DNA of 64,000 nt. Origin: Escherichia phage vB_EcoM_ASO2A. The stretch lies in the sequence record MZ726793.1; one strand, given 5' to 3'. A program made the position numbers and the translations under genes. The notes under the pieces are model-generated. The model searched no databases. It was not told where the DNA came from and saw only the letters and a list, made by a program, of their open reading frames with translations. Positions 23,743 to 61,233 of the stretch are shown here, one piece after another; the stretch's first letter is position 1, and every line of letters begins with the position of its first letter.

Positions 23743-23785
23743 TTTATTCTCCTAATAAGAAAGGGGCCGAAGCCCCTTGAGTGGT

Positions 23786-24586
23786 TTATTTGTTTAAGTG
23801 GTCTTCGACCATTTTAATGAAACCTTCATTGCTGAAGGCTGTTGCAGCTTTTTCTCGGTAAACAAAAACTCCACGATCTTCATAGAGAAGTGTTTCTTCG
23901 TAATTAACTCCAGGGTTAACTACAACCATTTTTGTCCCGATATTAAGAGCAGGAAAAAGCTCCCAGTTAAAATTGATAACTTGATTAGAGCAACCCACTA
24001 CAATCACCATATCTTGAGCCGTCAAGCCGTCTAAGATGTGGTACATATCGTTATACAATGGGGCAGTCTCCCCAAAGAACACTACATTGGGCTTCACATA
24101 CTTGTAATCATCCACATCGATAGCAGCATAGCCAACATCTTTGATGATTCTATTGTCTACGATCACTTCAGGCAGGAAGCCGTGAACATGTAGAACATCT
24201 TCATGAACAACACCCGCTTGTTCCAGAAGATCATCTACGTTTGTCGTGATGTTGATAACACGATCACAGCCGTACTCTTGAAACCATTCCGCGATCTGGT
24301 AATGCGCAGCGTTAGGAGACACACTATCCATCTCTACGCGACGTTTATTGTAGAAGTCATGAGTTTTACGGTAGAGGTTGTATCCCTCTGCATCTAATCC
24401 ACCAACAGCGCCAGGAACACACTGTTCTTGCTGGTAGCCAGCACGGAAATTGAAAATGTCACACACTTCAGAAAGGTCGTATTCATCCCACAAAGCTTTA
24501 CCACTTTCTGTGTCAGTGCGGAAAGTACGAATACCGCTATCGGCGCTTAAGCCAGCGCCGCTAATCACTATTAATCGTCTTGGCAT
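23786..24586 (-). CDS. SIR2-family protein (sirtuin-like NAD-dependent enzyme)
   Basis: 266 aa; N-terminal VISGAGLSADSGIRTFR matches the sirtuin GAGIS..SGIP.FR motif. Confidence 0.65.
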   Translation of the reverse strand: MPRRLIVISGAGLSADSGIRTFRTDTESGKALWDEYDLSEVCDIFNFRAGYQQEQCVPGAVGGLDAEGYNLYRKTHDFYNKRRVEMDSVSPNAAHYQIAEWFQEYGCDRVINITTNVDDLLEQAGVVHEDVLHVHGFLPEVIVDNRIIKDVGYAAIDVDDYKYVKPNVVFFGETAPLYNDMYHILDGLTAQDMVIVVGCSNQVINFNWELFPALNIGTKMVVVNPGVNYEETLLYEDRGVFVYREKAATAFSNEGFIKMVEDHLNK

Positions 24587-25056
24587 TCTTCCTCCTCAAA
24601 TGGATCATAAGAATCGTACTCGTAAGTATCATCTTCTGAAAATTCTACTTCGAAATAAATATCAAACTCTGCAAACAGACGTAGGATGTTAGACATGCTG
24701 TAATAATTATCGTAGGCAGATTCAGCTTCATAGTAAACATAAAGCAAATGGTTAGCCTTATCATCTTCCAAATATTTCCCGTCTGCATACGCATAGTCTG
24801 CATATGCTTTACCTGCATCTTCCACAAGAGAACGATCAAGCAGAGTAGGAAATGGTTTCTCTTTTTCTTTTAGTTTGCTCACCAACCAATGTGCAATATC
24901 ATTCCATTCTGCATCCATACCACTAAAGCAACTTGCTTCTTCTCCAAAAGAAGCTTCTCCTAAATCGCCACTAATACGAACAACATTAGATGAACTATAG
25001 CCACACGTTTCACAATCAGAGTAACTATTATGCACATTGACATTTACTTGAAACAT
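24571..25056 (-). CDS. hypothetical acidic protein
   Basis: 161 aa, strongly acidic C-terminus. Confidence 0.5.
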   Translation of the reverse strand: MFQVNVNVHNSYSDCETCGYSSSNVVRISGDLGEASFGEEASCFSGMDAEWNDIAHWLVSKLKEKEKPFPTLLDRSLVEDAGKAYADYAYADGKYLEDDKANHLLYVYYEAESAYDNYYSMSNILRLFAEFDIYFEVEFSEDDTYEYDSYDPFEEEECQDD

Positions 25057-25114
25057 ATTCCCTCCTATAAAAGAAAAGCCCCCTGAAACAGGAGGCTTTG
25101 TTCAGATATCGGCA

Positions 25115-25768
25115 CTATACCAGACTTTGAAGGTATTTGTCAAGTGCTTCTTGATCACCTTGACAAACATAGCAACGGAAGTCTTGAGCAGAAGGTTCTT
25201 TGTCCTCGTCCCAATCCCAATAGACAGTACCTTTATAGCGTGAGCCTGGGAACTCGAAGTATGCCACATGAGTAATATGGTGTGGGCCACCCCAAAACTC
25301 TGTAAAAGTAAATTGAGGATACGCTGCTTTAACTGTATTTTCAAACCAAGTTTTACGATCTAATGCTTCGTTTATAAAATAAGCATGGCGTTCCATTTCA
25401 TCCCACGTTTTCCAGACACTTCTCTCATCAGGAGAAAAGACAAGCCATTCTGGAAGGTAGAGAGTGTCATAGTAATCATCATATTCGATCTCGGAGACGC
25501 ACGAAGCTGACTCCTCCAGTTTTGAGTAATCAAAAGCAGAATATACCCACCAACCATCTTCCAGTAACGCTTTGATAGGGACGAAGCCTTTATCAGCATA
25601 TTGATCGAATTGTTTGACACGGTGGCTTGTGCAGTCTTCAAACTCACATTCTAAACGATATGCACCTTTTCGACGAGCCTCAAGACCGTGTGCACTGAAA
25701 ATAACAACACTTCCTTCACCATCATTACGATCTACTTGATAAGCAACTACTTGTTTTGAATTTGACAT
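25115..25768 (-). CDS. hypothetical protein
   Basis: 217-aa ORF. Confidence 0.5.
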   Translation of the reverse strand: MSNSKQVVAYQVDRNDGEGSVVIFSAHGLEARRKGAYRLECEFEDCTSHRVKQFDQYADKGFVPIKALLEDGWWVYSAFDYSKLEESASCVSEIEYDDYYDTLYLPEWLVFSPDERSVWKTWDEMERHAYFINEALDRKTWFENTVKAAYPQFTFTEFWGGPHHITHVAYFEFPGSRYKGTVYWDWDEDKEPSAQDFRCYVCQGDQEALDKYLQSLV

Positions 25769-26451
25769 TATTTCTCCTTATCTAGAAGATTGTTAGACAA
25801 AAACACTGCACGAGCAAAACCACGTGCGGTTAAGGATCTAAGTTGTTTTGTTTTTGCACTAGCTCCACCTAAGCTTTTCCAACCCCAGAAGCAGCCTATA
25901 TGATCTACTGGTTTCTTCACTGGTTGAACAAAACCATTGCCGTGCCAAATACAAGTTTTCTTTGTATACCCATCACGGGTAGGCATTTTAGGATGAAAGC
26001 TTCCTTCCTCTTCAAACAAATACCCACCATACTCATAAGGATCAAAGTAAAAATCGGGTTTACGCCATAAGGTTGAAAGTTTACCTACTGGGTTCTCAAT
26101 CATCCAAGGAACATTATATTTGTTACCCAAAGCTTCCACTACACGAATATTAGCTAAAGCTTCATCTAGTTCCTCTGTGCTACGTTCGTGTTTGCTACCA
26201 CTACCTGCTAACATAGTGCAAGGTGGAAATCCAAAAATAATATCGGGTTTAGGTATCCCATGATCTTCAGGGTTGAATGTAGAATCTATCCAGGCATTCA
26301 CATAGGTTATGTTTGGGTGCTCCATCCTAACCTCGTATTTACCGTGATCCCCTTCATCAGCGTTTACACAAAAACACTTGTGACCTGCTTCGGCATAACG
26401 TAACACCATAATCCCAGATCCGTCAAACATAGACAAAACTGTTTTACTCAT
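25768..26451 (-). CDS. C5-cytosine methyltransferase-like protein (compact)
   Basis: 228 aa from ATG 26451; motifs FDGSG, GFPPC and ENPVG in canonical order. Confidence 0.5.
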   Translation of the reverse strand: MSKTVLSMFDGSGIMVLRYAEAGHKCFCVNADEGDHGKYEVRMEHPNITYVNAWIDSTFNPEDHGIPKPDIIFGFPPCTMLAGSGSKHERSTEELDEALANIRVVEALGNKYNVPWMIENPVGKLSTLWRKPDFYFDPYEYGGYLFEEEGSFHPKMPTRDGYTKKTCIWHGNGFVQPVKKPVDHIGCFWGWKSLGGASAKTKQLRSLTARGFARAVFLSNNLLDKEK

Positions 26452-26857
26452 TACCCCTCCATTCAAGACAAGCCATAACTTTACGCCAATCACTTTCTGT
26501 AAGAAAAATCTCGTTTGCTTTCTTCCACAAATCTAAATCGTGAAGGGTTGGAATACGATATGTTAGTTCACAGAATCTATGCTCTTCTTCTGTAATATAA
26601 CCAAAATGCAGAGCCACATCGTGAAACCAACACCAACCATGCATCTCTCGAACAACATGGTCATGCTGAGACATTGTTTTATGCCGTAAACCTAACCAAC
26701 AAGGAACAGATACTTTAGTAGTCTTTAATCTGTGATCAACAGTATTAGAGTATTCAATAATAGCTGTCAGTTTCAATCGTGCTTTTTCTAAATCCTCATG
26801 GGTCACTTTGAAATAACTTTCTGAAAGATATCCACACATATTAATAACCTCCTTCAA
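26444..26857 (-). CDS. hypothetical protein
   Basis: 137-aa ORF. Confidence 0.5.
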   Translation of the reverse strand: MKEVINMCGYLSESYFKVTHEDLEKARLKLTAIIEYSNTVDHRLKTTKVSVPCWLGLRHKTMSQHDHVVREMHGWCWFHDVALHFGYITEEEHRFCELTYRIPTLHDLDLWKKANEIFLTESDWRKVMACLEWRGNE

Positions 26858-27782
26858 AAGGCTTAACTACATGTTGATTAGCTTTAAAACGTTCAACATA
26901 GTCGTTTTCGCCCATGTTTTCATATAGCTTAGTAACAACATAAAAGTTTTCCCAAGCATATTCCCTAAACCAACCACTAGTGATGGATGTGCAGACTTTA
27001 GATAAAGCCATTATAAAACTTTGCTTAGGGGTTGGACCTCCGATCTCTTCACCGAAAGGAATTTGTGAACGTTCCAAAGCCAAAACACACGCTTCTTCAT
27101 AAACACCTAACAGGCGCACATGTTTTGGTTGAGCAAAAAACTTTTCTTTGCTGGTCATAACTTCACTTCCATCTTTCATATAAGATTTATATGCTGGAGC
27201 ATCCATTAACGCGATTGCTTCATGGATAGAATCATGATCATAAACATAGGGAACCTCGTCACCTTTAAAGAAGTCTTTACTTTTTACGTTTAAGTTCGGA
27301 TGAGAGTAAGTGTATGTTTCTTTCTCACGTAACTCATAAATACTCTTAAGATTTTCTGGGATCTTTGCGCCCAGTGACCGCATGAAATGAATATCTTTCA
27401 TAGTTTTAAAGAAGTGAGGACTATCCTTTTTAAAACGATGACTCATTTTAAGAAGGTAGAGCACATCTAAAGGAGCAACAACATGTCCAGCGTAAGTTCG
27501 ACGAACATCATCAGAATCTTCACAATAACTAATCAAAGCTTCTGTGCTATCTCCTTGAGAAGCAATATCATATTCCAAATGTGCACCAGCTATCATTTTG
27601 ACGTGGCCTTTGTTCCTTTTACGTTCTACAAGTTCAACAAACTCGTCTTGAGAGAACATTTTTGATAATTCTTCCCACTCTTGTTCTGTACACAGGTAAT
27701 CTAAATCTACACAAGGGCGATACAAGTCTTTTCCCATGTCCATAGCATGAATTTGTAATGCACGGCTACCAATTAACACCAT
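26841..27782 (-). CDS. hypothetical protein (possible nucleotidyltransferase fold)
   Basis: 313 aa; weak N-terminal GS...DLD pattern; first gene of the operon. Confidence 0.45.
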   Translation of the reverse strand: MVLIGSRALQIHAMDMGKDLYRPCVDLDYLCTEQEWEELSKMFSQDEFVELVERKRNKGHVKMIAGAHLEYDIASQGDSTEALISYCEDSDDVRRTYAGHVVAPLDVLYLLKMSHRFKKDSPHFFKTMKDIHFMRSLGAKIPENLKSIYELREKETYTYSHPNLNVKSKDFFKGDEVPYVYDHDSIHEAIALMDAPAYKSYMKDGSEVMTSKEKFFAQPKHVRLLGVYEEACVLALERSQIPFGEEIGGPTPKQSFIMALSKVCTSITSGWFREYAWENFYVVTKLYENMGENDYVERFKANQHVVKPFEGGY

Positions 27783-27840
27783 AATATTTCTCCTCTATTG
27801 GTTGATAGGTTAAGTTTATCAAGCTTCCAGATTCCTGTCA

Positions 27841-27864
27841 ATAAAAAACCCGCCGAAGCGGGTT
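27841..27864 (-). terminator. Rho-independent terminator (UUCG loop)
   Basis: On minus strand CCCGC-UUCG-GCGGG then UUUUUU; the T-run overlaps the -35 of the SIR2-operon promoter. Confidence 0.6.
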
Positions 27865-27872
27865 ATTATTTA

Positions 27873-28145
27873 CTAACACATTGAGGAAGAAGAGATCCAA
27901 ACACCTCTTGTGGTTAAACCATTTTCATCCAACTCTACACCATAATCTTCACAAATGAAATCAATATAGTGATCTGCGGCTGGCGTTCCTGTAGGGTAAT
28001 AAGTTTCTCCGTTACCGTAGTCACCTATCCAAGCTTGTTCCTGAAACTGTTCACAGAGTTCTTCAATTTCCTTACGAAACTTTCTTTGTGCTTGTTCCAT
28101 CTCTTTAACTTTCTTTTTTATCAGCAGTTCGCCTTCAGACTCCAC
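27873..28145 (-). CDS. acidic small protein, paralog family C (C-terminal W-SSS-C)
   Basis: 90 aa, GTG start after SD AAGGAG; ends GVWISSSSMC. Confidence 0.5.
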   Translation of the reverse strand: MESEGELLIKKKVKEMEQAQRKFRKEIEELCEQFQEQAWIGDYGNGETYYPTGTPAADHYIDFICEDYGVELDENGLTTRGVWISSSSMC

Positions 28146-28154
28146 AATCTCTCC

Positions 28155-28373
28155 TTAACAGCTACTACTGTGCCAAACGCCTTGAGAATTAACGACGAAA
28201 CCATCATCACCTTCACCATAACAAGAAGAGGATTGCCAATCTTCAAAACAGATTGCGTCATCTTCTAAGCTAAGACCAAAACCAGCATCTTCGGCTTCTT
28301 TTGTAAGTTCGTCCACTAAAGCCATAATAGCTTGGGCTTTTTCAGTTAATTCTTCAATGTTACGATAACTCAT
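28155..28373 (-). CDS. acidic small protein, paralog family C
   Basis: 72 aa from ATG 28373; SD GAGGAG; ends GVWHSSSC with an internal WQSSSC. Confidence 0.55.
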   Translation of the reverse strand: MSYRNIEELTEKAQAIMALVDELTKEAEDAGFGLSLEDDAICFEDWQSSSCYGEGDDGFVVNSQGVWHSSSC

Positions 28374-28642
28374 TAGTATTTCTCCTCTGGTTGGAAAACG
28401 GAACGACAGGCCCACATAGAAGCTTCTTTCAACTTAGTCTTTGCTATTGAAATTTGGTCAAGGCGGGTGGATATATTGGTAGACTCTTCCAAATCTTCAC
28501 AATCATCCAGTTCAGCCCACAATTCAGACATTAGAGCATCAAAGATTAATCCTAATCGAACTTCAGCATCTTTAATAGCATTCACTTTACCAATTTTGTC
28601 ATCGGTATGCGGTTTATAACCTTTGATATCTTCGATTCCCAC
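28373..28642 (-). CDS. hypothetical protein
   Basis: 89 aa with GTG start 4 nt after AGGAGG. Confidence 0.45.
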   Translation of the reverse strand: MGIEDIKGYKPHTDDKIGKVNAIKDAEVRLGLIFDALMSELWAELDDCEDLEESTNISTRLDQISIAKTKLKEASMWACRSVFQPEEKY

Positions 28643-28653
28643 TTTACCTCCTA

Positions 28654-28851
28654 TTAACAACTTAAAGAAGATGGATGCCAATTTGTTCCAGTATTCTCAT
28701 TTTCATCTTCTGGATCATAATAACCACCCATCCCATATTCAGGAGAGAAACTGAAACCTTCACCAGTCTCGTCTGCTAACTGTTCTGCTTCCGCTAAAGC
28801 CTCATAAGCTGCTTTTACGGCTTCTTCTACTGTTTTAAACTTGGTCGTCAT
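28654..28851 (-). CDS. acidic small protein, paralog family C
   Basis: 65 aa; ends NWHPSSLSC. Confidence 0.55.
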   Translation of the reverse strand: MTTKFKTVEEAVKAAYEALAEAEQLADETGEGFSFSPEYGMGGYYDPEDENENTGTNWHPSSLSC

Positions 28852-29125
28852 AAAATTTCTCCTCTCCTAAAGACATGTTGACATGAAATGCGCGGTATGT
28901 AAATTCGTTGTCCGTTGTGTTAGAATAAAACTCAAATTGAACAACACCGTCTTGAGAAGACAAATACATGCCAATTTGAACTGTTCCTTCTGGTACCAGG
29001 TAAGCATACTCTGGACGTAGTGTTACATTGTAAAAATAAAGTTCCCCAACACCCATTTCATCCCAAGCTTCCCAAGCGGTAACGAAGTTACTTTCAAAAC
29101 TTGTTACTGATCCGAACTCTGCCAT
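28835..29125 (-). CDS. hypothetical protein
   Basis: 96-aa ORF. Confidence 0.5.
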   Translation of the reverse strand: MAEFGSVTSFESNFVTAWEAWDEMGVGELYFYNVTLRPEYAYLVPEGTVQIGMYLSSQDGVVQFEFYSNTTDNEFTYRAFHVNMSLGEEKFYDDQV

Positions 29126-29616
29126 AAAACCTCCTCAATCTTGTAGTTTGACTCCATCTCCAACACATTTCCACGAACATCTCTCCGAAGAAAGGCATAA
29201 GCTTTATTAGGTATTGTAGACTCATATTTAACCATATCTGGCACAGCAAAAGATACTACTACTCCTGCTGGGCTTCTGTCAAGAGCCTTATTAATATTTC
29301 TAAGGATATCGTTAGCCAAGATTTCTGCCAATTCTCCAAGAACAGTTTCGGTTATATCTTTATATCCCATTAAATATTTGTTGATATCTTTCATCTCTGT
29401 ATTGTTCAGAGTATAGTCTAAAGGATAAAAATTCAAAGAGGAGTCACTTTTATGTGTCCACATGAAATGCACCCGATCCGAGCAGAATCGTAACCCTCTA
29501 CGAAGAATATCTTCTACAACAGGGAGAATTTCTTTTGTCACATCATTAACCATGTTGTAATCTAAGATTTCTGCCAAGTTTGTTCTTTGTTCACCACGTT
29601 TACGTCTAGGAATCAC
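29104..29616 (-). CDS. hypothetical protein
   Basis: 170-aa ORF. Confidence 0.5.
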   Translation of the reverse strand: MIPRRKRGEQRTNLAEILDYNMVNDVTKEILPVVEDILRRGLRFCSDRVHFMWTHKSDSSLNFYPLDYTLNNTEMKDINKYLMGYKDITETVLGELAEILANDILRNINKALDRSPAGVVVSFAVPDMVKYESTIPNKAYAFLRRDVRGNVLEMESNYKIEEVLWQSSDQ

Positions 29617-30187
29617 TTGTTATTGCCCTCATTACCAAAGGTCGTAGAAAATCGTAAATCTCTTGTTTTGTTTTCCCACGAATGTTTAAACAAGGAACAT
29701 TATTGGCTTTAGCTATCTTCCAAGCCGTAGCTGTTCCACCTTTTGCATCTCCATGTTTATCAGTATTAGTACAAGCCAACAAGAAACATGATGGAGCAGG
29801 ATTCTCCAAATCTCTGCCTAACACTTGATGCACATTACGTTGGTGCAATTTTCTAGCACCCTGCTTAAGCTTTTCATAAGCTGGGTGAACATCTTTGATC
29901 CATTGCACAGAGATAGCATAGTTCATTGTATCTGGTTTTGCAAGAACAATAACATCACCTGGAATCTGATTACCTTTGAAATTTTCCCAAGGAACATAAA
30001 TTTCCTTGTTAGTAGGATTTTCAGACTCTTGGACACCTGTTTCAAAAGCAGAATCACTACCCTCTGCCTTACCAGACCGTAATTTAAACCCAAGGTTTGA
30101 AAGCCATTTCCCTATGCCTACCATCAAAGCCCACTCTTCTTCAGATATGTCCCTACTTCCAACTCCCGTATAGAACAGTTCTGCCAT
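29606..30187 (-). CDS. DprA/Smf-like Rossmann-fold protein (putative)
   Basis: 193 aa from ATG 30187; YTGVGSRD and SGKAEGSDSA resemble DprA motifs. Confidence 0.4.
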   Translation of the reverse strand: MAELFYTGVGSRDISEEEWALMVGIGKWLSNLGFKLRSGKAEGSDSAFETGVQESENPTNKEIYVPWENFKGNQIPGDVIVLAKPDTMNYAISVQWIKDVHPAYEKLKQGARKLHQRNVHQVLGRDLENPAPSCFLLACTNTDKHGDAKGGTATAWKIAKANNVPCLNIRGKTKQEIYDFLRPLVMRAITSDS

Positions 30188-30194
30188 AATCACC

Positions 30195-30503
30195 TCAACA
30201 AGTAATTTCAAAAGGTGTATAGGGTTCCGTATTTCTCATAATCCAAGGACTGCTAGGATTGCTCGGATCATAAGGACCAAAAGGTTTTATGGTAGGTTGT
30301 GTTTCTTTCTTCTGAATCTCTTCAAAAATACGACGAAGTTCAGAATATTCTTGATCCACCATAAGATTCGGTGCATCTGATTCTACAGTTTGCAGGTTAT
30401 CTTCCTTAAGAACAATCTCACGAACAAGATTAACATCTTCTGTTTCTAAGATAACTTCTTTACGGATATTACCTACACTTTGAATAATTGTAATTTTATA
30501 CAT
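30195..30503 (-). CDS. hypothetical protein
   Basis: 102-aa ORF. Confidence 0.5.
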   Translation of the reverse strand: MYKITIIQSVGNIRKEVILETEDVNLVREIVLKEDNLQTVESDAPNLMVDQEYSELRRIFEEIQKKETQPTIKPFGPYDPSNPSSPWIMRNTEPYTPFEITC

Positions 30504-31246
30504 TAATCCTCCTCAAGAGTTGAATAAAATTGAAGACCACCATCCATATCGAAATAAGCAAATGTTAAGTTATTATTGAACACAGATCCAGTATCCATAT
30601 AAACACGATTCGCATTGATAATAGGTGTTTTTACATAAGAGTGTCCATGAAACACATAATCCACACCCATCACAACAGGAAGTTTCATTCCCTCTTTAGC
30701 ACAGTCTACCATATCTCTGTCCCACATAAGTGCTTCAGCAAAACGGTTTTCCTGTGTTTTTGTCATCTTCGAAATGTATTCTGGAAGATCTGTTACAGGG
30801 AGATATTCCAAAGAAGATGGATACCCACCATGAATAAACGCAAGTTTCATGCCTCTGTAGTTAACAATGAGAACAACAGGTAAATCTTCTGTCATCATTG
30901 CTAAGGCTGTAGCTCCTTCTTCACCACATTCTTCAAATACCGTATATCCTCCATTTTGATACCAACACTCGTAGTAGCTACGATCTCCTTCCAGCATACC
31001 TTTAATCATCATGTCTTCATGATTGCCACGAATAGCGTAGCGATTGTGTTTACGAGTAAATTCTAAAACACAACGAAAGTTTTGCTTTCCACGATCAGTA
31101 AGATCTCCTAAAGATACAACTACATCTGTATCTCGGATACCTAACTTTGCCTTTCCTTTTTCATACAGATTATAACAACCATGTAGATCTCCAATTATAA
31201 AAAGGTCTTGATCGCTTTTAACAGTAATTTCTCTATGTATGATCAC
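30503..31246 (-). CDS. Ser/Thr protein phosphatase (metallophosphatase)
   Basis: 247 aa; motifs GDLHGC, GDLTDRG, GNHE. Confidence 0.8.
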   Translation of the reverse strand: MIIHREITVKSDQDLFIIGDLHGCYNLYEKGKAKLGIRDTDVVVSLGDLTDRGKQNFRCVLEFTRKHNRYAIRGNHEDMMIKGMLEGDRSYYECWYQNGGYTVFEECGEEGATALAMMTEDLPVVLIVNYRGMKLAFIHGGYPSSLEYLPVTDLPEYISKMTKTQENRFAEALMWDRDMVDCAKEGMKLPVVMGVDYVFHGHSYVKTPIINANRVYMDTGSVFNNNLTFAYFDMDGGLQFYSTLEED

Positions 31247-31572
31247 TTATCCTCCTCAAAATCTAAGAAAATAAAAATATTCACCTTTCCTTCAATCTCT
31301 TGTTCTAAAACAAGATCGGCAAATTCTGCATAAGCTTTCTCTTCAACTTTTTCAATATGCTCTGCGGCATCTTTAAAAGGCGTATCCCCATCCACCTTTA
31401 CTAATAAGAAAAGAGATCGCATTTCTACGCTTTTACTGTTACGAGGAAGGAAATCTACAGCTTCAACAATTCTCCAACCCAAATAGCCAGGGGTTTTATG
31501 AATCTCTCCTAAATACTTTTCTAAGATTTTACGACCCTCGTCGATAAGGGCTTGTTCTGTAGTAATTTCCAT
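31243..31572 (-). CDS. hypothetical protein
   Basis: 109-aa ORF. Confidence 0.5.
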   Translation of the reverse strand: MEITTEQALIDEGRKILEKYLGEIHKTPGYLGWRIVEAVDFLPRNSKSVEMRSLFLLVKVDGDTPFKDAAEHIEKVEEKAYAEFADLVLEQEIEGKVNIFIFLDFEEDK

Positions 31573-31582
31573 TCCTTCCTCC

Positions 31583-32173
31583 TCAAATTATTAACGAAAC
31601 CGCATGACTAAATCTTGGTTCAGATATAACCTCTGCTACAGTAACATATGTATCGTGCAGCCAAAAAGATTCTACTCTACAAACACAAATACCGTTGATA
31701 ATGAAATCTACACAGGCTTTATTATTTTCGCACACTTGTTGACTATAAACAACCCCTAAAGAGTCATAAAGTGATCTCACTGTTGCTACCATTTCATCTG
31801 TTTCGTCTTCCTGTGAAACAAAGAAAACGAATACAGACAAGTTATTAGCGAAAGTATTGCTATTCTCTACTTCAACCGACTTACAAGGTAAAAAGGAGTA
31901 ATATTTACCATTAGGTATCAATTTCGCCTCAACCTGGTTAAGTATGCTTTGAGATGGTTTTGTTACATAAAAAAGATTTTCTGTTGGGTTTTCAACATTA
32001 CTCCTTACTATGCAACGAGTGGGGTTCGAAGGATCAAAAACATGATCGAAATCGACACACACAGGTAAGTTAACAACTTTAAACTTTTTGCTAAGAATGC
32101 TTACTGCTGTAAAAATCAAACCAGCATTTATTTTGCCAGTGAAAGTTGAACGCATAACTACTCCTCGGATCAT
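31583..32173 (-). CDS. hypothetical protein
   Basis: 196-aa ORF; ATGA overlap with upstream gene. Confidence 0.5.
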   Translation of the reverse strand: MIRGVVMRSTFTGKINAGLIFTAVSILSKKFKVVNLPVCVDFDHVFDPSNPTRCIVRSNVENPTENLFYVTKPSQSILNQVEAKLIPNGKYYSFLPCKSVEVENSNTFANNLSVFVFFVSQEDETDEMVATVRSLYDSLGVVYSQQVCENNKACVDFIINGICVCRVESFWLHDTYVTVAEVISEPRFSHAVSLII

Positions 32174-32364
32174 TCTACCAAAGAGAATTCCGCCTCTTCC
32201 AGGTAGATTACAGACCTTGTTGCATGATATTTAACGCTCCAGAAATTACCTTCGCGCCGTAAAAGTATCTCATTCACATCAAGATTGCTTAGAAAAACCA
32301 TATAACTTAAAGCTTGTTGACGCGTTGAGAATTGTTTCTCTAAAAGTTCTTCTCCGCTCTGCAT
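32170..32364 (-). CDS. hypothetical protein
   Basis: 64-aa ORF. Confidence 0.45.
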   Translation of the reverse strand: MQSGEELLEKQFSTRQQALSYMVFLSNLDVNEILLRREGNFWSVKYHATRSVIYLEEAEFSLVE

Positions 32365-32409
32365 AATCCCTCCTTAAAATACTCCCTCCGAAAAGGGAGT
32401 ATAAGTATA

Positions 32410-32613
32410 TCACGTAGTTGTTATGTTGTCTTCTTGGATTCTAGAATCCACTTCTGCAAACATATCTTCTGCACTGTAATTATTTCCAGTCCAGCGTGAT
32501 AAAAGGATAGCACCAATCTCTTTTGCATGAGATTCGGACTCCGCATAAACGTTAGTCCCAGTGTCACCTTTTTTCTTTTCATGTGCATAAATGCAGTAAT
32601 AATTGTAAGCCAT
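32410..32613 (-). CDS. hypothetical protein
   Basis: 67-aa ORF. Confidence 0.45.
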   Translation of the reverse strand: MAYNYYCIYAHEKKKGDTGTNVYAESESHAKEIGAILLSRWTGNNYSAEDMFAEVDSRIQEDNITTT

Positions 32614-32849: not shown

Positions 32850-32861
32850 AGTTCACACTCC

Positions 32862-33789: not shown

Positions 33790-33834
33790 TATTAATCTCC
33801 TATGTTTAAGAAATGCCCCCGAAGGGGCAGTTTG

Positions 33835-35030: not shown

Positions 35031-35062
35031 TCCTCCTTATAAATGGCTTCCCTGCCATGTCA

Positions 35063-35872
35063 TTAAATAAACACTTCAGTAATCAGTTTAGACAAACGTC
35101 CACGTTTATTATCGTCCGTTGTCAGTTCAACGTATCCAATAAAATCTACAATTGGCTCACGAACACCTTCTTCATTTTCTGGATATAAAAGTTCCAAAAT
35201 TTGATGCAGACCATTGCTACGTTTTTTAATTGCATATGTCTGGCGAACATCGCCTAATACAATAACATGCGTATTAATACCTGCACGTTCAATAAGAAGT
35301 TTAAGTGTTTCTGTTGACATAAGTTGTGCTTCGTCAATAATGACGATTGTATTATCCAGGGTGGCCCCCAACAAATAGTTAGGAATATTCAATTCGATCT
35401 TACCTGATCCAATATCGTTTTCCAATTTGTTGGCTGTCATGAATTGCTGGAAAATACGTTTTGTAGATTCATAGTGTGCTGCTAGTTTATCTGTTTTATC
35501 TCCAGACAAGAAACCAATCTGGTCATCTCCGACTTCAGTAGGGTTCTTGATAAAAAGTAGTTTACGGAAGTCTCCTGAACGAAGCATCTGCAAAGCTTTC
35601 CATAAAGCAACAGAGGTTTTACCAGTCCCTGCCGGAGCATTTACAACAGTCAGATCATTCCAAATCATGCTTTGAACAATCTTATTTTGGTCCCCTTCAG
35701 GCATAAATTCATCTAAACGGTAATCGTCATTACCTACCGCTTTTGCTGCATAACGGCTTTCAATCTTTGCTGAATTAGCCAGTTTCTGCCGTTGTGTTTT
35801 AGCTGCGGTTTTATTTCCCATAGTAGCACTCCTTTTAGAAGGGGCCGAAGCCCCTTTATTAGTTGTAAGCAT
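35063..35872 (-). CDS. phoH: PhoH-like ATPase
   Basis: 269 aa; Walker A APAGTGKTS; overall PhoH layout. Confidence 0.8.
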   Translation of the reverse strand: MLTTNKGASAPSKRSATMGNKTAAKTQRQKLANSAKIESRYAAKAVGNDDYRLDEFMPEGDQNKIVQSMIWNDLTVVNAPAGTGKTSVALWKALQMLRSGDFRKLLFIKNPTEVGDDQIGFLSGDKTDKLAAHYESTKRIFQQFMTANKLENDIGSGKIELNIPNYLLGATLDNTIVIIDEAQLMSTETLKLLIERAGINTHVIVLGDVRQTYAIKKRSNGLHQILELLYPENEEGVREPIVDFIGYVELTTDDNKRGRLSKLITEVFI

Positions 35873-36359
35873 CTAAAGTTCCAGAAGTCAGAACTTTAAT
35901 TACTCGTTCAGCACGGTTTGGCGTCTGGCTATACCATCGGCTTTTACGCATGTTTTTACCTGCTTGAGTATAATATGCATTGCTGATTAAAGTCAAGCTA
36001 TTTTGAAACCCTTCAGCACCTTTTAACCCCAACTGGAAAACCATGTTGATTATTCCCAATTTACGAGTATCACTAACCTTATCATAGATTGGTGATAAGA
36101 TAGCACTGTTTTTTATGTCTCTCTTCACTTTTGCAACATCGTCAGCAAAGATTTGACGGGCTTCTTTTTCTGTGATAACTCCATTAGTCTTACGACCAAG
36201 AAGATTATCTAAGATTTGAATAGCCTTTGCTTTATCTTTTATTTTAGTCAGAAGGTGTCCTATGCCGACTGTCCAATAACCAAGATGGTCTTGATAAACA
36301 GTAAGCTTCAGTCCTTCATCGACTCGTAGCATATCAAACTCATCTACTACTTTAGCCAT
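35859..36359 (-). CDS. T4-type lysozyme (endolysin)
   Basis: 166 aa; MLRVDEGLKLTVYQDHLGYWTVGIGHLLTK closely matches the T4 lysozyme N-terminus including catalytic E, D and T. Confidence 0.9.
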   Translation of the reverse strand: MAKVVDEFDMLRVDEGLKLTVYQDHLGYWTVGIGHLLTKIKDKAKAIQILDNLLGRKTNGVITEKEARQIFADDVAKVKRDIKNSAILSPIYDKVSDTRKLGIINMVFQLGLKGAEGFQNSLTLISNAYYTQAGKNMRKSRWYSQTPNRAERVIKVLTSGTLDAYN

Positions 36360-36366
36360 TTACTTC

Positions 36367-36516
36367 CTATTCGTCGTCTCCTACTCCGTGATCCAACTCG
36401 TTAAACAACAGATGTTCTGGAGAAGTTTCACGTTTTGGTTTCGTTTTCTTTATGTTGGACTTCAGCTCATTTGCCAAAGCACGAGAAAAGATCTTACGTT
36501 TCTGTTTACTTTTCAT
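36367..36516 (-). CDS. small basic protein (49 aa)
   Basis: ORF below track cutoff filling the lysozyme-glutaredoxin gap; weak SD. Confidence 0.3.
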   Translation of the reverse strand: MKSKQKRKIFSRALANELKSNIKKTKPKRETSPEHLLFNELDHGVGDDE

Positions 36517-36521
36517 AATTG

Positions 36522-36782
36522 TTACTCCGCAATTTGAGCCATGAGATCACGCAGTTCGGTAAAACCGCCTACGTATGTTACCTCCCCGTTCACTTCGGAC
36601 AGAATTTGTGGAAATGTGCGTGGAGGAACTCCGGTAAGATCAACAACTGTTTTAGTCATTGATTCTAAATCATAGTCTTGATCAAGACTTAAATATTCAA
36701 ACTGTTTATTGCGCATGGTTAATAGTTGTTTTGACATTTCACAAAATTGACAGTTAGGTTTACCAAAAATTACAAATTCCAT
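36522..36782 (-). CDS. glutaredoxin/thioredoxin-like protein
   Basis: 86 aa; N-terminal CQFC redox motif; next to the rml and nrd genes. Confidence 0.65.
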   Translation of the reverse strand: MEFVIFGKPNCQFCEMSKQLLTMRNKQFEYLSLDQDYDLESMTKTVVDLTGVPPRTFPQILSEVNGEVTYVGGFTELRDLMAQIAE

Positions 36783-37624
36783 TACCTCTCCTTATTAAGT
36801 AATACTGCTAAAGACTGTTCAATACCTTTATTTAAATCTGATTTTGTAAGATAGTGACTGGTTACTAGTTGTGACTTCACCGGACGTGCTGCTGGAGCAT
36901 TATAGGTTGAAGCTGATACCGCCGATATCTTAACAGGTTCTGGCATCTGTGTCAAGATCTTTTCCGCAAACTCCGCCCAAGAAATAAGATGGCTTCCTGC
37001 AAAATGGTAAGTCTTAACAGACCTTGACCAACCTGTTTTTAATACTTCAAAAATAGCTTCTGCTAAATCTGGAGCATATGTTGGACAAGAGAACTGATCA
37101 GCAACAATAATAAAATCACGTTGTCCATCATTATAGCGAGACAACATGGTTTTTAGAAAGTTATTTCCAAATTCGCTATATACCGAGGCTGTTCGAATAA
37201 TATATGCATTTGGGTTAACTCCTCGCACCATTTTTTCACCAAGTTCTTTCGTATACCCATAATTGTTTATTGGGTTAGGTGTAGTATCTTCAAAAATAGG
37301 ATGAGAATAATTAAAAATATAGTCTGTAGAAATATGCACAAAATCAATTTTAAGTTTGCTGCACACTGCCGCAATATTTGCAGGTCCATACGCATTAACA
37401 GCCAAAGCAGTAGCAAAATCATGTTCTGCTTTATCTACAGCCGTATAAGCGGCGCAATTAATAACACCATCTACATAATCTTCAATAATAGCGTTTCGCA
37501 CAGCTTCAAAATTTGTAATATCTACACGTTCTTTAGGATAAATTAAAGATACATTTGAAGGAGCCACTTTACGTAAAGCTTGTCCCAGTTGTCCATTACC
37601 GCCCAATACCAGATATGTTAGCAT
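36782..37624 (-). CDS. rmlD: dTDP-4-dehydrorhamnose reductase
   Basis: 280 aa; N-terminal LVLGGNGQLGQAL Rossmann motif; last gene of the rml operon. Confidence 0.8.
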   Translation of the reverse strand: MLTYLVLGGNGQLGQALRKVAPSNVSLIYPKERVDITNFEAVRNAIIEDYVDGVINCAAYTAVDKAEHDFATALAVNAYGPANIAAVCSKLKIDFVHISTDYIFNYSHPIFEDTTPNPINNYGYTKELGEKMVRGVNPNAYIIRTASVYSEFGNNFLKTMLSRYNDGQRDFIIVADQFSCPTYAPDLAEAIFEVLKTGWSRSVKTYHFAGSHLISWAEFAEKILTQMPEPVKISAVSASTYNAPAARPVKSQLVTSHYLTKSDLNKGIEQSLAVLLNKER

Positions 37625-38184
37625 ACACCCTCGCTACGTAACTGTTGAAAAGATTTAGCCATTGCATCTTTTGTTGATAGAATAGGTTTAAAACCTTCGT
37701 CAAAAATCATATCGAAGCCCCAATCGATCCCTATATCAGGATCATCCCAACGTAAACTTTGTTCACTAGAAGGGTCGTATGGAGTTGTGCATTTGTATTC
37801 AAAGATAGCATCCATACTCAAAACTATAAAACCATGAGCCAAACCAGGCGGAAGCCAAAACTGCGTATGGTGTCGTGCACGAAGAACAACACCGTCCCAA
37901 GCACCGTAAGTTGGACTATCTTTACGTAAATCTACAGCGAAATCCAATACTTCCCCACTTACACAACGAACTAGCTTACCTTGCGGGTTATTTGTTTGAA
38001 AGTGCATTCCTCGCAAAACACCGAAGTTTGATTTAGACATGTTATCTTGAACGAAAGTTTGTCTACCAATAATATCTTCGTATTTTTGTTCATTATATGT
38101 TTCTAGAAAGAAACCACGATCATCTTTATAAACGTCTGGTTTGATAATTACCGCACCTTCAATTTTTGTTTTTTCTACTTTCAT
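37618..38184 (-). CDS. rmlC: dTDP-4-dehydrorhamnose 3,5-epimerase
   Basis: 188 aa from ATG 38184 (ATGA overlap with rmlA stop); cupin-type RmlC motifs DDRGFF and RGMHFQ. Confidence 0.8.
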
Positions 38185-39059
38185 TTTCTCTCCGCTAATT
38201 TGAGTAGGTATTGCCCGTACTCTGTTTTCTTCAGTGAGTTTCCATGATACACCAAAGTCTCTAAAGAAATCCACCCTTTTTTGAAAGCAATTTCTTCCAG
38301 GCACGCAATCTTCAATCCTTGACAGTTCTCAATAGTCTGCACGAATTGACCAGCTTCCATCAGACTGGCGTGTGTTCCTGTGTCAAGCCAAGTAAATCCT
38401 CGTCCGAGAACTTCCACTTGTAACTTCCTGTCTTCTAGGTAGCTGCGATTGATATCAGTGATCTCCAGTTCTCCACGCGCGGAAGGGGTTACTTCTAATG
38501 CACGTTGAATAACAGAGTTATCATAGAAATACAAACCTGTGACAGCATAATCTGATTTAGGATTTTCAGGTTTCTCTTCAATAGAAATAGCTTGACGATT
38601 ACTCCCAAATTCAACCACACCGAATCGTTCAGGATCTTTCACCAAATACCCGAAAATACAAGCTCCGCCCCAAACATCTACCATCTCACTGGCGTTAATC
38701 AGTAGTTTACCAAAGCTTTGTCCGAAGAATAGGTTGTCACCTAAAATAAGAGCAACAGAGTCTTCTCCGATAAAATCTTTACCTATGATGAAAGCTTCCG
38801 CAAGACCTCGTGGCTCGGATTGGATTGCGTAAGTGAGTTTTATCCCAAACATAGACCCATCTCCGAGAAGATACTCAAAGTCTTCCTGATCACCTGGTGT
38901 GGTGATGATTAAAATATCCTTAATGTCAGCCAACATCAATACCGATAAAGGGTAGTAGATCATGGGTTTGTCATACACAGGGAGCAATTGCTTGCTCACA
39001 CTGCGTGTTACCGGATGAAGGCGGGTTCCGCTTCCTCCCGCCAAAATAATACCTTTCAT
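38181..39059 (-). CDS. rmlA: glucose-1-phosphate thymidylyltransferase
   Basis: 292 aa; [18 protein letters not shown]...[17 protein letters not shown] is the RmlA signature. Confidence 0.9.
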
Positions 39060-39067
39060 AACCCTCC

Positions 39068-40060
39068 TTAAATTTTCTCACTCCACCATTGAGGGTTGTT
39101 TAAGTACCATTCAATCGTTGAGTAGAGATCTTGTTCAAATGTAGAGTTTGCACTCCAGCCCAGTTCAGACTCTATCTTAGAAGGATTGATTTCATAACGC
39201 AAGTCATGTCCTTTACGATCTTCAACAAAAGTTATCAAGTTGGAAGAAGGGTAGGTTACTGCTTCTGGATGTACAGTATCCATATAGTCACAAACCATAT
39301 AGATGATCTCCATATTGGTTTTGGGATTACGTGTTCCAACATTATACGTTTGACCTGGTTCTCCACCTGTTGCCACTTGAAGAATAGCTCGCGCATGATC
39401 CTCAACAAAAAGCCAGTCTCGCACCTGGTCGCCTTTACCATACACCGGAATCTCTTTATTCGTCAAGATACTTGTGATGATTTTTGGGATCAGCTTTTCT
39501 GGATGTTGATAAGGCCCAAAGTTATTGGAGCAGTTGGTTATCACAACAGGCAAATCGTAGGTGCGGTGCCAAGCTTTCACAAGATGGTCAGATGCCGCCT
39601 TAGACGCACTGTATGGGCTTGAAGGGGCATAAGCTGTCTCTTCGGTAAAAGGAACGCCAGAGTCTGCCATATCGCCGTACACTTCGTCTGTGGAGACGTG
39701 TACGAACATCTTCAGTTTATTTTTTGGGAGGAGCCTTGCAGCTTCCAATAAATTGTATGTACCAATAATATTGGAGTCAATGAAAACTCGTGGATTCTTG
39801 ATAGAATTATCCACATGACTCTCTGCCGCTAAGTGAATGATGAAATCGGGATTGCACTCTACTACTAAACTTTTGACCTGGGTTTCGTTTGCCAAATCTG
39901 TCATGCTTAGTTTAATGTGAGTGATATCGCCTACATTCTCAATATCTGCTGCATAGCCCATCTTATCAACGACAAAAACTTCGTTATTAGGATCTTGACA
40001 AAGAGAGCGCACCACGGCACTCCCAATAAAACCAAGACCACCTGTTACCAGATAGCGCAT
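39068..40060 (-). CDS. rmlB: dTDP-glucose 4,6-dehydratase
   Basis: 330 aa; [21 protein letters not shown]-binding N-terminus typical of RmlB. Confidence 0.9.
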
Positions 40061-40069
40061 CAGTTCTCC

Positions 40070-40396
40070 TTACCAGACATGTTGAGAAATAATAGTTTCC
40101 GTTTTAATGTTATATTTTTCAAGTAGTTTTGCATAGGCTTCTTTTGCATTCTCATTCAATTGCTCAAGATCTACAGCTATGCTTCCCTCTCCGCCTTCTA
40201 AATCAAGGCCATATATGCAATAAGACTCATCCGCATCGTAGAAAGGAGAGATGCGGCTTAAGTCCAGACCTTCTTGTAAGAACCAGTTAAAATCTCCATC
40301 AAATTCTTCTTCAATTCTAGGATCTTCTCCTACAGCCTCTTCCCATTTATTAAAAGGTGCACCCTGTAACATACGCCATGCAATATCAACTCCCAC
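40070..40396 (-). CDS. hypothetical acidic protein
   Basis: 108-aa ORF. Confidence 0.5.
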   Translation of the reverse strand: MGVDIAWRMLQGAPFNKWEEAVGEDPRIEEEFDGDFNWFLQEGLDLSRISPFYDADESYCIYGLDLEGGEGSIAVDLEQLNENAKEAYAKLLEKYNIKTETIISQHVW

Positions 40397-40532
40397 TATC
40401 TTCCTCCTCTTCTTTTTCTTCTGTATGAACGAAACCTAAGCCGTTACAATTCCAACAAGGAATAAATTGTTCCATACTAACAATAAAATTCCCAGTGCCG
40501 CCGCAGATAGGACAAATACTTACATCATCCAT
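40386..40532 (-). CDS. small zinc-ribbon protein (48 aa)
   Basis: ORF below track cutoff; CPICGG...CWNC. Confidence 0.45.
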   Translation of the reverse strand: MDDVSICPICGGTGNFIVSMEQFIPCWNCNGLGFVHTEEKEEEEDSGS

Positions 40533-40534
40533 TA

Positions 40535-40741
40535 TTAAAGCTCCTCAATCTTTTCTAACATCTGTTTTAACTCATTCTCTGTTAACAGAATTTCTGTGAT
40601 ACCATCATAAGTTTCTACCATCAGAGTAAAACATTTTTCCCCATCTGAACACACAAAAGCGCCACCTTCATCTTCTGTTAAGTCAGAATTAATATCTACA
40701 TCACCAAAATCAATCATCTTTTTCTCCTTTGATAATTTCAA
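40535..40741 (-). CDS. hypothetical protein
   Basis: 68-aa ORF. Confidence 0.5.
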   Translation of the reverse strand: MKLSKEKKMIDFGDVDINSDLTEDEGGAFVCSDGEKCFTLMVETYDGITEILLTENELKQMLEKIEEL

Positions 40742-40928
40742 ACTTGGCTACACCATTAACTATAATGTGACCACAAGACATAACTCCTAGCCAAGGATCG
40801 CCGTTTTTCTTCAGGCGTTTACCGAATACATCACAAAAACCATTCTTCATTTCGGAGGCTTCATAAGAAGCCCCTTTATCAAAAACGTCTTTGAATGTGT
40901 CGATTATACCAACACATCTCAAAATCAT
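40710..40928 (-). CDS. hypothetical protein
   Basis: 72-aa ORF. Confidence 0.45.
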   Translation of the reverse strand: MILRCVGIIDTFKDVFDKGASYEASEMKNGFCDVFGKRLKKNGDPWLGVMSCGHIIVNGVAKFEIIKGEKDD

Positions 40929-42013
40929 TAGAAGTCAAGCTCCTCATCATCAGAGAGATCTTTGTTAGCTGAATTCAATTTGTAATTAGTTAACTGAATC
41001 TCTTGGGCTGCTGACTGAATCAAATCAGGATTCAACCATTTTTCCATCCAAGCTAAAGGACTATGTTTAGGTGCTTTAAACTTGGCTTTCATTTTCAATC
41101 GACGATAAATAGGAGCAGCATTGAAATAAACCCACTGTTTAGACAATTCGGCGTTAAGACCTACAATAAAACGACCTTCACTAAACAGGTAGTCACACCA
41201 CTGTTCCTCTTGTTCAACAACAGTGTCGAGGATCAAAGTCAACTCTTCAATATTGTCTTCGTAAATTTTACGCCAAATTGGGTCATGCATCAATGCATCA
41301 ATTACAGCATAATCCATCTTAACATGCAAGATTTCATCTAGCATAATTTTCTGGATCAGTTTACAAGCCCCAACAAACAGTTGTTGTTCTGCCATAGCAA
41401 AAGTAGCAGAGAAGGAAGATATAAACTGAATACCTTCTAATCCAATCAGGGCTACCATCCCTTTAAGAATCAGCAGTCGAAGTTCATCGTTAGCTTCAAT
41501 CAATCCTAGAGCATACTTATGACCAGCTTCTTCCAACTGACCCATGATATCAGCAATGATACCCATACGATTGAAAATTTTATCATTAATCATAATCTGA
41601 TTGATGACTTCAATTGGATCTGGAGTACATTGACGGATTATTTCAGAATACGTTAACGCATGGAGAACTTCCATTTCACTCTGCTTCATCATCATAGCAC
41701 AGGCTTCATTGTTACTCAAGAATGGAGAGAACAAAGTGATGATTGATTTTGCAAGAGAATCATTTTCCCATTGGAACGATAAGTTTTTAATCATAACATC
41801 ATAGTTGTTTTTAGAACAAGCTACGAAATCTTTACGTGTCTGATCCAGATTAACTTCGTTTTCATCCCAATCTTGTGCTTTTTGAAGTTTGTAGAGTTTG
41901 TGCATTTCAGGGTAAGTCACGTTGATAGAATCAAAAATCCCCAACTGTTCCCCCATGAAAACTGGATATTTACCTGTTTTGTAAGTCTCGTTATGTAAAT
42001 TAATTGCTGCCAT
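40928..42013 (-). CDS. nrdB: ribonucleotide reductase class Ia beta subunit
   Basis: 361 aa; R2 di-iron/ferritin-like architecture; adjacent to nrdA. Confidence 0.85.
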   Translation of the reverse strand: MAAINLHNETYKTGKYPVFMGEQLGIFDSINVTYPEMHKLYKLQKAQDWDENEVNLDQTRKDFVACSKNNYDVMIKNLSFQWENDSLAKSIITLFSPFLSNNEACAMMMKQSEMEVLHALTYSEIIRQCTPDPIEVINQIMINDKIFNRMGIIADIMGQLEEAGHKYALGLIEANDELRLLILKGMVALIGLEGIQFISSFSATFAMAEQQLFVGACKLIQKIMLDEILHVKMDYAVIDALMHDPIWRKIYEDNIEELTLILDTVVEQEEQWCDYLFSEGRFIVGLNAELSKQWVYFNAAPIYRRLKMKAKFKAPKHSPLAWMEKWLNPDLIQSAAQEIQLTNYKLNSANKDLSDDEELDF

Positions 42014-42338
42014 TTAAATCCTCCACTATTTCACAAAAACCTCTTAAGCTTAAAATATCTTCTTCCTCAAAATCATTGCTCCGGTAGAAAGCTTCCAGTG
42101 CTTCCCATACGCTTCTACCAAGTATAACAGTCACTGTTTCTTCACTTCTTGCCCTTGTTATTGCGTAAGCCGTGGCTTCTGGATAAAAAGATTCCCAAAT
42201 CTGCATGTTAGCTATTTCAAGACCGCCAAGATAATGGTGACACCAAGTAGGGGTAAAATCTTCAGGGCGAATCAACAGAGGCTTAAACCCAGGTCGGTAG
42301 ATTGGGGTTACTCCAGGTAAAACTATAATTGTGCTCAT
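42000..42338 (-). CDS. hypothetical protein
   Basis: 112 aa from ATG 42338, downstream of hairpin 42357-42370 and SD GAGGAGG. Confidence 0.5.
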   Translation of the reverse strand: MSTIIVLPGVTPIYRPGFKPLLIRPEDFTPTWCHHYLGGLEIANMQIWESFYPEATAYAITRARSEETVTVILGRSVWEALEAFYRSNDFEEEDILSLRGFCEIVEDLNGSN

Positions 42339-42378
42339 AATCCTCCTCAATAAAAAGGGGCTGAAGCCCCTAGTTTCA

Positions 42379-61231: not shown

Positions 61232-61233
61232 AC

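Follow-up and report, generated by a model that had tools for sequence, protein, structure and literature searches.

Hairpins capped by a UUCG or UUCA tetraloop recur at gene junctions of Escherichia phage vB_EcoM_ASO2A (sequence record MZ726793.1), and on the leftward early/middle operons they probably act as Rho-independent terminators or attenuators used by the host RNA polymerase. We analyzed a stretch of 64,000 nucleotides of this genome (here called the window), for which an earlier note had listed five such hairpins on the minus strand. All five, with their UUCG or UUCA loops, lie exactly where it had placed them. Our full inventory of GC-rich hairpins in the window revealed two more, at 32379-32402 on the minus strand and 23123-23140 on the plus strand. 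The seven sites, J1 to J7, are the following, each given with the eight nucleotides after its last GC pair.

23761-23778, minus strand: J1, AAGGGGC-UUCG-GCCCCUU, with the core GGGGC-UUCG-GCCCC at 23763-23776, followed by UUUCUUAU.
27847-27864, minus strand: J2, AACCCGC-UUCG-GCGGGUU, with the core CCCGC-UUCG-GCGGG at 27849-27862 and a U6AUU tail, followed by UUUUUUAU.
33814-33829, minus strand: J3, UGCCCC-UUCG-GGGGCA, followed by AUUUCUUA; its tail reads UUUCUUAA and leads into a Shine-Dalgarno (SD) sequence.
35839-35856, minus strand: J4, AAGGGGC-UUCG-GCCCCUU, with the core GGGGC-UUCG-GCCCC at 35841-35854, followed by UUCUAAAA.
42356-42371, minus strand: J5, AGGGGC-UUCA-GCCCCU, with the core GGGGC-UUCA-GCCCC at 42357-42370 and a U5AUU tail, followed by UUUUUAUU.
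32379-32402, minus strand: J6, AUACUCCCUU-UUCG-GAGGGAGUAU, with nine Watson-Crick pairs plus the wobble of its U.G closing pair, followed by UAUUUUAA and then the SD AAGGAGGG.
23123-23140, plus strand: J7, AACCCGC-UUCG-GCGGGUU, located toward the end of the rightward operon and having a U6 tail, followed by UUUUUUCA.

These structures share a compact design, with core stems of 5 to 7 bp (10 at J6, counting its U.G wobble) that contain four or five GC pairs and enclose a loop of 4 nt. As isolated stem-loops they fold at -10.3 to -13.2 kcal/mol, and each is present in the minimum-free-energy fold of its own intergenic region. J1 and J4 are identical over 18 nt, and J2 and J7 are the same 18-mer on opposite strands. 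The GGGGC...GCCCC stem from which the earlier note had named the whole set is found at three of its five sites and is missing from the other two (27849-27862 and 33814-33829). A C-G-closed UUCG loop of the UNCG class is present at J1, J2, J3, J4, and J7, whereas J5 has UUCA and J6 closes with U.G.

The number of these hairpins is far above expectation. Under a strict definition (a stem of at least 5 contiguous bp with at least four GC pairs and a TTCG or TTCA loop), the window contains six, against a mean of 0.044 expected, and none of 1,000 dinucleotide-preserving shuffles reached six. This genome-wide motif count is the valid test; shuffle z-scores of the short intergenic folds (-0.7 to -3.2) are uninformative because shuffling keeps the blocks of G and C. 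A d'Aubenton-Carafa style d-score was not used as evidence either, since its sign flips when the A-U extension is assigned to the tail instead of the stem.

The 20-kb stretch around the hairpins matches Escherichia phage PNJ1809-36 at 99.8% identity and phAPEC8 (Stephanstirmvirinae, Phapecoctavirus) at 98.4%; judging by these matches, the window is that of a phAPEC8-like Phapecoctavirus. All seven hairpins are intergenic and carry UUCG or UUCA on the strand of the flanking genes. Together with three further UUCG hairpins elsewhere in phAPEC8, 10 out of 10 are in sense orientation. Since the stems are near-palindromic, direction is visible only in the loop and the tail, and the sense bias therefore points to a function at the RNA level.

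The sequence downstream of the stems is also consistent with termination. Six of the seven sites have five to seven U's in the 8-nt tail, and J4 has three. The earlier note had placed most hairpins immediately 5' of an SD and not behind a U-tract. Proximity to an SD holds for four of its five sites and fails for the fifth; the opposition to a U-tract does not stand, as a U-rich tract is present and is then followed by the SD at most sites. Four of those five (J1, J2, J3, and J5) pass a simple intrinsic-terminator scan of the minus strand, and J4 (35839-35856) fails it.

The junctions follow a recurring order: stop codon, 2 to 8 nt, hairpin, U-rich stretch, an SD 4 to 13 nt after the stem, and AUG. 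The SD spacing is that of J1 and J3 to J6, five sites out of seven. At J1, the stem begins 7 nt past the stop codon of a Sir2-like gene, and the SD (AGGAG) and an AUG 18 nt after the stem follow. J3 begins 5 nt past the stop of the gene for an HslV-like peptidase, J4 begins 2 nt past that of a lysozyme gene, with the SD of PhoH 4 to 5 nt after the stem, and J5 begins 7 nt past that of nrdA, ahead of the SD GAGGAGG and an AUG at 42338. The stop-to-stem spacing of 44 nt at J7 is the exception, and the next start codon is 64 nt after the stem at J2 and 29 nt after it at J7. We found no promoter before the next gene at J1 and J3 to J6. J2 is arranged otherwise, with a promoter behind it.

27813-27841, minus strand: sigma-70-type promoter TTGACA-17-TAAACT, TG-extended, directly 3' of J2.

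This promoter would restart transcription for the next gene after the J2 terminator, and its TTGACA box is kept downstream of the hairpin in relatives. In phAPEC8, a UUCG hairpin at 107535 similarly precedes an annotated host-type (sigma-70) promoter. The equivalent of J2 is annotated in the phAPEC8 GenBank record as a "putative terminator determined with ARNold," and GAAA-loop hairpins in the late region of that phage are likewise ARNold-annotated terminators. On the plus strand, a promoter-like TTGACA-17-GATAGT lies directly 5' of J7 (region 23075-23146), and phiWec190 has TTGACA-17-GATACT. A transcript from this site would be only about 35 to 40 nt long and could be a tiny RNA or reflect a promoter-proximal attenuator.

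Two start codons next to these hairpins are probably overextended. The open reading frame (ORF) after nrdA has in phAPEC8 (phAPEC8_00109) an annotated start equivalent to 42407, inside nrdA, so that it runs through the J5 hairpin. A likelier start is the ATG at 42338, which the SD GAGGAGG precedes by 5 nt. Similarly, the longest PhoH ORF starts at 35872 and runs through J4 (region 35821-35872, minus strand), and the annotated start at 35821 has an SD.

We compared the orthologous junctions of phAPEC8, nieznany, phiWec190, phi92, Serratia phage KKP_3264, and nine IMG/VR contigs. The hairpin is retained at these junctions while the flanking proteins drop to 35 to 85% identity. The stem of J2 is invariant in relatives whose upstream protein is just 35 to 46% identical, and that of J4 (GGGGC/GCCCC) is invariant with a loop of UUCG, GCAA, GUAA, or GAAA. 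Loops are exchanged at other sites as well: UUCG, UACG (phiWec190), or GAAA (phi92) at J1, and UUCA, UUCG, GAAA, or, with a GGGGG/CCCCC stem, a loop of 6 nt at J5. J6 of phiWec190 has another stem (CUCCUUGU/GCAAGGAG) with the same loop; among the relatives compared, the J6 hairpin is absent outside Phapecoctavirus. J7 is kept in phAPEC8, nieznany, and phiWec190, and an AACCCGC-UUCG-GCGGGUU hairpin is found in phi92 too. Compensation is clearest at J3, where across seven relatives 100% of the alignment cells are paired, three of the six pairs have compensatory double changes, and none of 500 shuffles reaches the covariation score. Overall, the six junctions yielded 27 distinct variants, with 10 UNCG and 8 GNRA loops accounting for 18 of the 27 and tails averaging 5.2 U's out of 8. 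Since loops swap and stems compensate, selection acts on a stable hairpin with a U-rich tail and not on any one sequence. A sequence-specific factor is unlikely to recognize these sites, given that loops and stems vary freely among orthologs.

IMG/VR searches for more distant relatives returned nine PhoH loci and six NrdB loci from the same few contigs, and an exact-pattern scan for the J5 junction matched a single contig. The 18-mer of J1 and J4 (AAGGGGCTTCGGCCCCTT) is far more widespread, occurring in at least 120-plus (>120) unrelated IMG/VR contigs among the matches listed. In the 123 copies among those matches, positions +3 to +6 after GCCCC are U in 71 to 86% of cases. Five or more U's in the 8 nt downstream on the UUCG strand are found in 90% of copies, compared with 53% for the equivalent A-tract on the opposite side, and 32% have an SD-like motif within 25 nt. 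By these tails, the J1/J4 hairpin appears to be a common directional terminator in many phages, with J4 belonging to the weak-tail minority.

The following mechanism would account for these features. The short GC-rich stem, whose tetraloop is of exceptional stability (UUCG in this phage and UNCG or GNRA in its relatives), would fold fast in the nascent RNA, and at the U-tract a fraction of the polymerases would be released, the remainder reading through into the next gene. A ribosome on the stop codon would occlude the 5' arm of the stem. Because most stems begin 2 to 8 nt past the stop, termination is expected to be partial and coupled to upstream translation, and such hairpins would mainly terminate transcripts without a closely trailing ribosome. 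What the data show directly is the structures with their excess over chance, orientation, and U-rich tails, and their conservation with loop swapping and covariation; from these we infer termination itself, its efficiency, its gating by ribosomes, and a stabilization of the mRNA. Ribosomes repress a terminator almost completely when it lies a few base pairs past a stop codon, and its efficiency climbs with distance up to about 30 bp (PMC4824070). Li et al. found that lambda tR2 reaches an efficiency of about 0.9 only beyond about 30 bp from the stop codon, since closer to it the terminating ribosome blocks hairpin folding (PMC4824070). Transcripts ended or processed at these sites would retain a stable 3' hairpin that shields them from 3' exonucleases; mRNA is protected by 3' hairpins, and strong termination is favored where a tetraloop is combined with a perfect U-tract (PMC9257418).

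The individual sites would differ in strength. J2 and J7, with canonical tails, look like efficient terminators, and J2 seems to close a transcription unit. J1, J3, J5, and J6 resemble leaky attenuators, through which expression along the operon would be graded. As these four have no promoter before the next gene, the downstream genes, nrdB among them, rely on read-through, and the sites must be leaky; their short stems with interrupted U-tracts and the closeness of the stop codon also predict leakiness. J4, with almost no U-tract, is the weakest terminator candidate and may mainly be a structural cap that stabilizes a 3' end. Two of the functions proposed in the earlier note fit these results. 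Partial terminators are matched by GC-rich hairpins with U-rich tails, in sense, just 3' of stop codons, mostly with no promoter before the next gene, and persistent at their junctions; stabilizing elements that set expression ratios are in line with the same structure, position, and orthologous persistence. The observation on the hairpins is partly confirmed, and its interpretation is partly supported.

Several points weigh against termination as the role of these hairpins. J4 has a poor U-tract (UUCUAAAA) and fails the terminator scan; 63 records match its junction at 100% identity, and a terminator annotation is absent there from all 60 that were listed. In Justusliebigvirus, the J3 tail is only UUAUUAGG. 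That hairpins are conserved even with a weak U-tract suggests that they have a value beyond termination. The canonical-looking J5 lies directly 5' of nrdB with no promoter-like site between them, so the model requires leaky termination. Finally, a literature search for transcriptomes or 3' ends of Phapecoctavirus returned only genome papers with predicted terminators.

The best-placed alternative is a purely posttranscriptional one, although we regard it as unlikely. The hairpins would be barriers to the 3'-to-5' exonucleases PNPase and RNase II after an endonucleolytic cut in the AU-rich downstream spacer, with no termination involved; the mRNA of the upstream cistron would be stabilized and decay would differ along the operon, as with repetitive extragenic palindromic (REP) elements and similar intercistronic stabilizers. 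AU-rich single-stranded spacers do follow the hairpins, and such RNA is the type of sequence preferred by RNase E. Across genera, J4 has retained its GGGGC/GCCCC stem together with an extra-stable loop despite its poor U-tract, and the swapping of loops among the most stable tetraloop classes shows that thermodynamic stability itself is under selection. Protection of mRNA by 3' stem-loops is an established phenomenon (PMC9257418). Yet a stabilizer does not need a U-tract, and there are five to seven U's in the next 8 nt at six of the seven sites; in the 123 listed copies from other phages, the side downstream on the UUCG strand has a much stronger U-tract than the opposite side. Fresh promoters after J2 and the 107535 site are also what true terminators would have. 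The two roles are not mutually exclusive.

A more elaborate version of the attenuator model strikes us as rather doubtful. It would make the hairpins translation-gated attenuators, which would stop only those transcripts whose upstream cistron goes untranslated and so tune ratios of the nrdA:nrdB kind, with the 18-nt cores perhaps also serving as crossover points for the exchange of gene cassettes in Stephanstirmvirinae, for example the HNH cassette at nrdA/nrdB, in the manner of the promoter-early stem-loop (PeSL) elements of T4-like phages.

It is improbable that the hairpins are translational insulators, fast-folding and self-contained structures just past the stop codon that keep the downstream SD from pairing with upstream coding RNA or modulate reinitiation and so make the translation of each cistron independent of its surroundings. 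The start of the SD 4 to 13 nt past the stem at five of the seven sites would suit such a role, as would the SDs of J4, J5, and J6, which are mostly unpaired in the predicted folds. The literature also portrays the UUCG hairpin as a nucleus of autonomous folding with no binding partner (PMC4371310). However, J2 and J7 are distant from the next SD (start codons 64 and 29 nt after the stem), and the folds predict weak pairing between the U-rich tail and the SD at J1 and J3, contrary to what an insulator would do. Insulation also leaves the U-tract unexplained, and the listed identical hairpins have a U-tract in 90% of cases and an SD-like motif within 25 nt in only 32%.

A role at the DNA level, in which the hairpins would be short homologous cassettes where recombination swaps gene modules, like the PeSL elements, is highly improbable. 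In its favor are the identical 18-mers of J1/J4 and J2/J7, the composite of terminator and sigma-70 promoter at J2, and two cassette replacements that end beside hairpins, 43 nt from the center of J5 (an HNH gene swap) and 23 nt from the center of J6 (a replacement in phi92). But 18 bp of homology is short next to the conservation of about 100 bp in PeSL elements (PMC2839356), and the promoter is missing at most sites. The sense orientation of 10 out of 10 hairpins and their directional U-tracts indicate selection at the RNA level. When relatives are aligned, most of the breaks fall at a distance from hairpins. Any role in recombination would be a by-product; our check of alignment breakpoints gave this reading anecdotal support only.

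The replacements themselves are of some interest. The nrdA-nrdB interval (42000-42406, minus strand) is polymorphic: the window and phAPEC8 have an ORF of 112 amino acids, nieznany has in place of this small ORF a 657-nt HNH endonuclease gene (L005 20499-21243), and phi92 has a gene of the same length as the HNH gene, annotated only as a potential transcription factor (L002 19734-20468). This recalls mobE of T4-like phages, which is inserted between the same two genes. In nieznany, a GGGGC-UUCG-GCCCC hairpin with U6 is found after the inserted HNH gene, directly before nrdB. The gene downstream of J6 (32110-32413, minus strand) is replaced in phi92 by a segment of about 1 kb with a gene of the resolvase/invertase family (L002 9021-10014).

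RNase III processing sites were a further option of the earlier note. That they divide the polycistronic mRNA into separate pieces, as such sites do in phage T7, is scarcely credible, and this reading was rejected on stem length: apart from the intercistronic position, which is its sole support, flanking A- and U-tracts can lengthen the helix to some 13 to 17 imperfect pairs, but only at J2 and J5, whereas the core stems of 5 to 7 bp (10 bp at 32379-32402) are far below the roughly 20 bp of double-stranded RNA, or about two helical turns, that E. coli RNase III normally requires. The internal-loop architecture of the T7 type is missing as well, T7 R-sites being much longer, irregular hairpins, and both the free swapping of loops and the 18-mer shared by the at least 120 unrelated contigs, 90% of its listed copies with a U-tract, fit terminators.

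The hairpins belong to a larger arrangement of terminator-like elements. Rightward genes occupy 1-23.4 kb and leftward genes about 23.5-60 kb, and the two blocks converge at 23443-23466. Between 23.5 and 44.6 kb, the leftward block encodes the Sir2-like protein, methylases, a phosphatase, the HslV-like peptidase, the lysozyme, PhoH, dTDP-rhamnose enzymes, and NrdA/NrdB. Two elements with other loops stand out here.

23443-23466, both strands: bidirectional terminator AAAGGCACCC-(AAGU/ACUU)-GGGUGCCUUU at the convergence point of the rightward and leftward operons.
25075-25099, minus strand: terminator-like intercistronic hairpin AAAGCCUCCUG-UUU-CAGGGGGCUUU in the leftward operon, with the tail UCUUUUAU and then an SD.

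The first, despite its non-UUCG loop, is an ARNold-annotated terminator in phAPEC8, and we count it within the same terminator set. By the phAPEC8 annotation, every intergenic gap of at least 35 nt in the leftward block has a hairpin, a U-rich stretch, and an SD inside it, a count that includes two non-UUCG hairpins (25075-25099 and the one in the gap after PhoH). This suggests that the spacers exist mainly to carry these elements. A scan of the whole window against Rfam at the gathering threshold matched 11 tRNAs (61.1-63.2 kb) and nothing at the hairpins; the tRNA genes form a cluster at 61157-63166 on the plus strand that corresponds to the tRNA block annotated in phAPEC8.

The rightward early region has hairpins of other kinds. 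Seven GC-rich ones, exemplified by GGCGGGAA-UGU-UUCCCGCC and GCGGCA-AUGG-UGCCGC, lie on the plus strand at 281-295, 567-582, 1316-1332, 1798-1813, 2383-2404, 3533-3553, and 4392-4410. All seven precede an SD and an ATG. Six are about 10 to 12 nt 3' of a sigma-70-like promoter (a TTGAC/T box, a -10 box, and a shared TATCAC[A/G]TAGG-like motif), and the one at 2383-2404 has a weak TTGAAT box only. They look like a repeated module of a promoter and a stem-loop in the 5' untranslated region, perhaps a 5' mRNA stabilizer or an operator. The same region has three copies of a terminator, GGGCGC-AC(U/C)AA-GCGCCC plus a U-tract, at 1-17, 3984-4000, and 5122-5138 (plus strand). The transcription blocks of the phage differ in their "brands" of terminator. 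Elsewhere, positions 28372-28653, under a gene annotated as vs.4-like in nieznany, are 76 to 92% identical in nucleotide sequence to vs.4 genes of T4-like phages (JS10, CC31, SP18, and others), which suggests gene exchange between Tevenvirinae and Phapecoctavirus.

Beyond annotation, the importance of these findings is small; the literature already counts 20 predicted terminators in the related phage rV5 and 55 in Phapecoctavirus ASO2A. They provide a transcription-unit map for phAPEC8-like phages, in which J2, J7, and the convergence point figure as strong terminators and J1, J3, J5, and J6 as probable attenuators, and they flag two likely overextended start codons. They also offer a clean example of orthologous terminators in which UNCG and GNRA loops substitute for each other. 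Such compact junction elements probably set expression ratios, and in phage engineering they should be kept during gene swaps.

Repertoires of this kind have been described in other phages. Phages commonly have many intergenic terminators, and one motif is common to 61 terminators of phiKZ (PMC10914365). The terminators mapped in that phage by ONT-cappable-seq resemble ours in that many near-identical intergenic hairpins occur in one genome, with read-through and with some directly after promoters; they have a different motif and were mapped experimentally, whereas the hairpins here were read from the sequence. The PeSL cassettes of T4-like phages combine an intergenic stem-loop terminator or attenuator with a sigma-70 early promoter and an SD (PMC2839356, PMC4122927). 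J2, a terminator followed by a promoter, and J7, a promoter-like site followed by a hairpin, resemble this composite form. In contrast to PeSL cassettes, J1 and J3 to J6 lack a promoter, the sequence in common spans about 18 nt instead of about 100 nt, and module shuffling is anecdotal.

Tetraloop terminators are standard in E. coli, where tetraloops, UUCG in particular, are reportedly overrepresented in Rho-independent terminators (attributed to d'Aubenton Carafa et al., 1990, J Mol Biol). The hairpins described here resemble these terminators in their GC-rich stem of 5 to 7 bp, 4-nt loop, U-rich tail, upstream A-tract, and sense position after a stop codon, and one of them is called by ARNold. 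They differ in being unusually near the stop codon (2 to 8 nt) and the next SD, from which leakiness is expected, and in J4, which has no proper U-tract. Partial terminators are also present inside operons (PMC4824070).

The closest likeness is to phage T4. Tuerk et al. are said to have described C(UUCG)G hairpins in its intercistronic regions (PNAS, 1988). In both cases, a short GC stem with a C-G-closed UUCG loop, which folds fast and is unusually stable, recurs between the genes of a large virulent coliphage transcribed by the host RNA polymerase. The lineage is here Stephanstirmvirinae and not Tevenvirinae, and J5 (UUCA) and J6 (U.G closing pair) depart from strict C(UUCG)G. UUCG hairpins were first discovered in T4 mRNA, and UNCG and GNRA are the two unusually stable classes of tetraloop (PMC4371310). 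The repeated UUCG hairpins of this phage are real, but they are probably of an ordinary and long-known type of intergenic phage terminator or attenuator.

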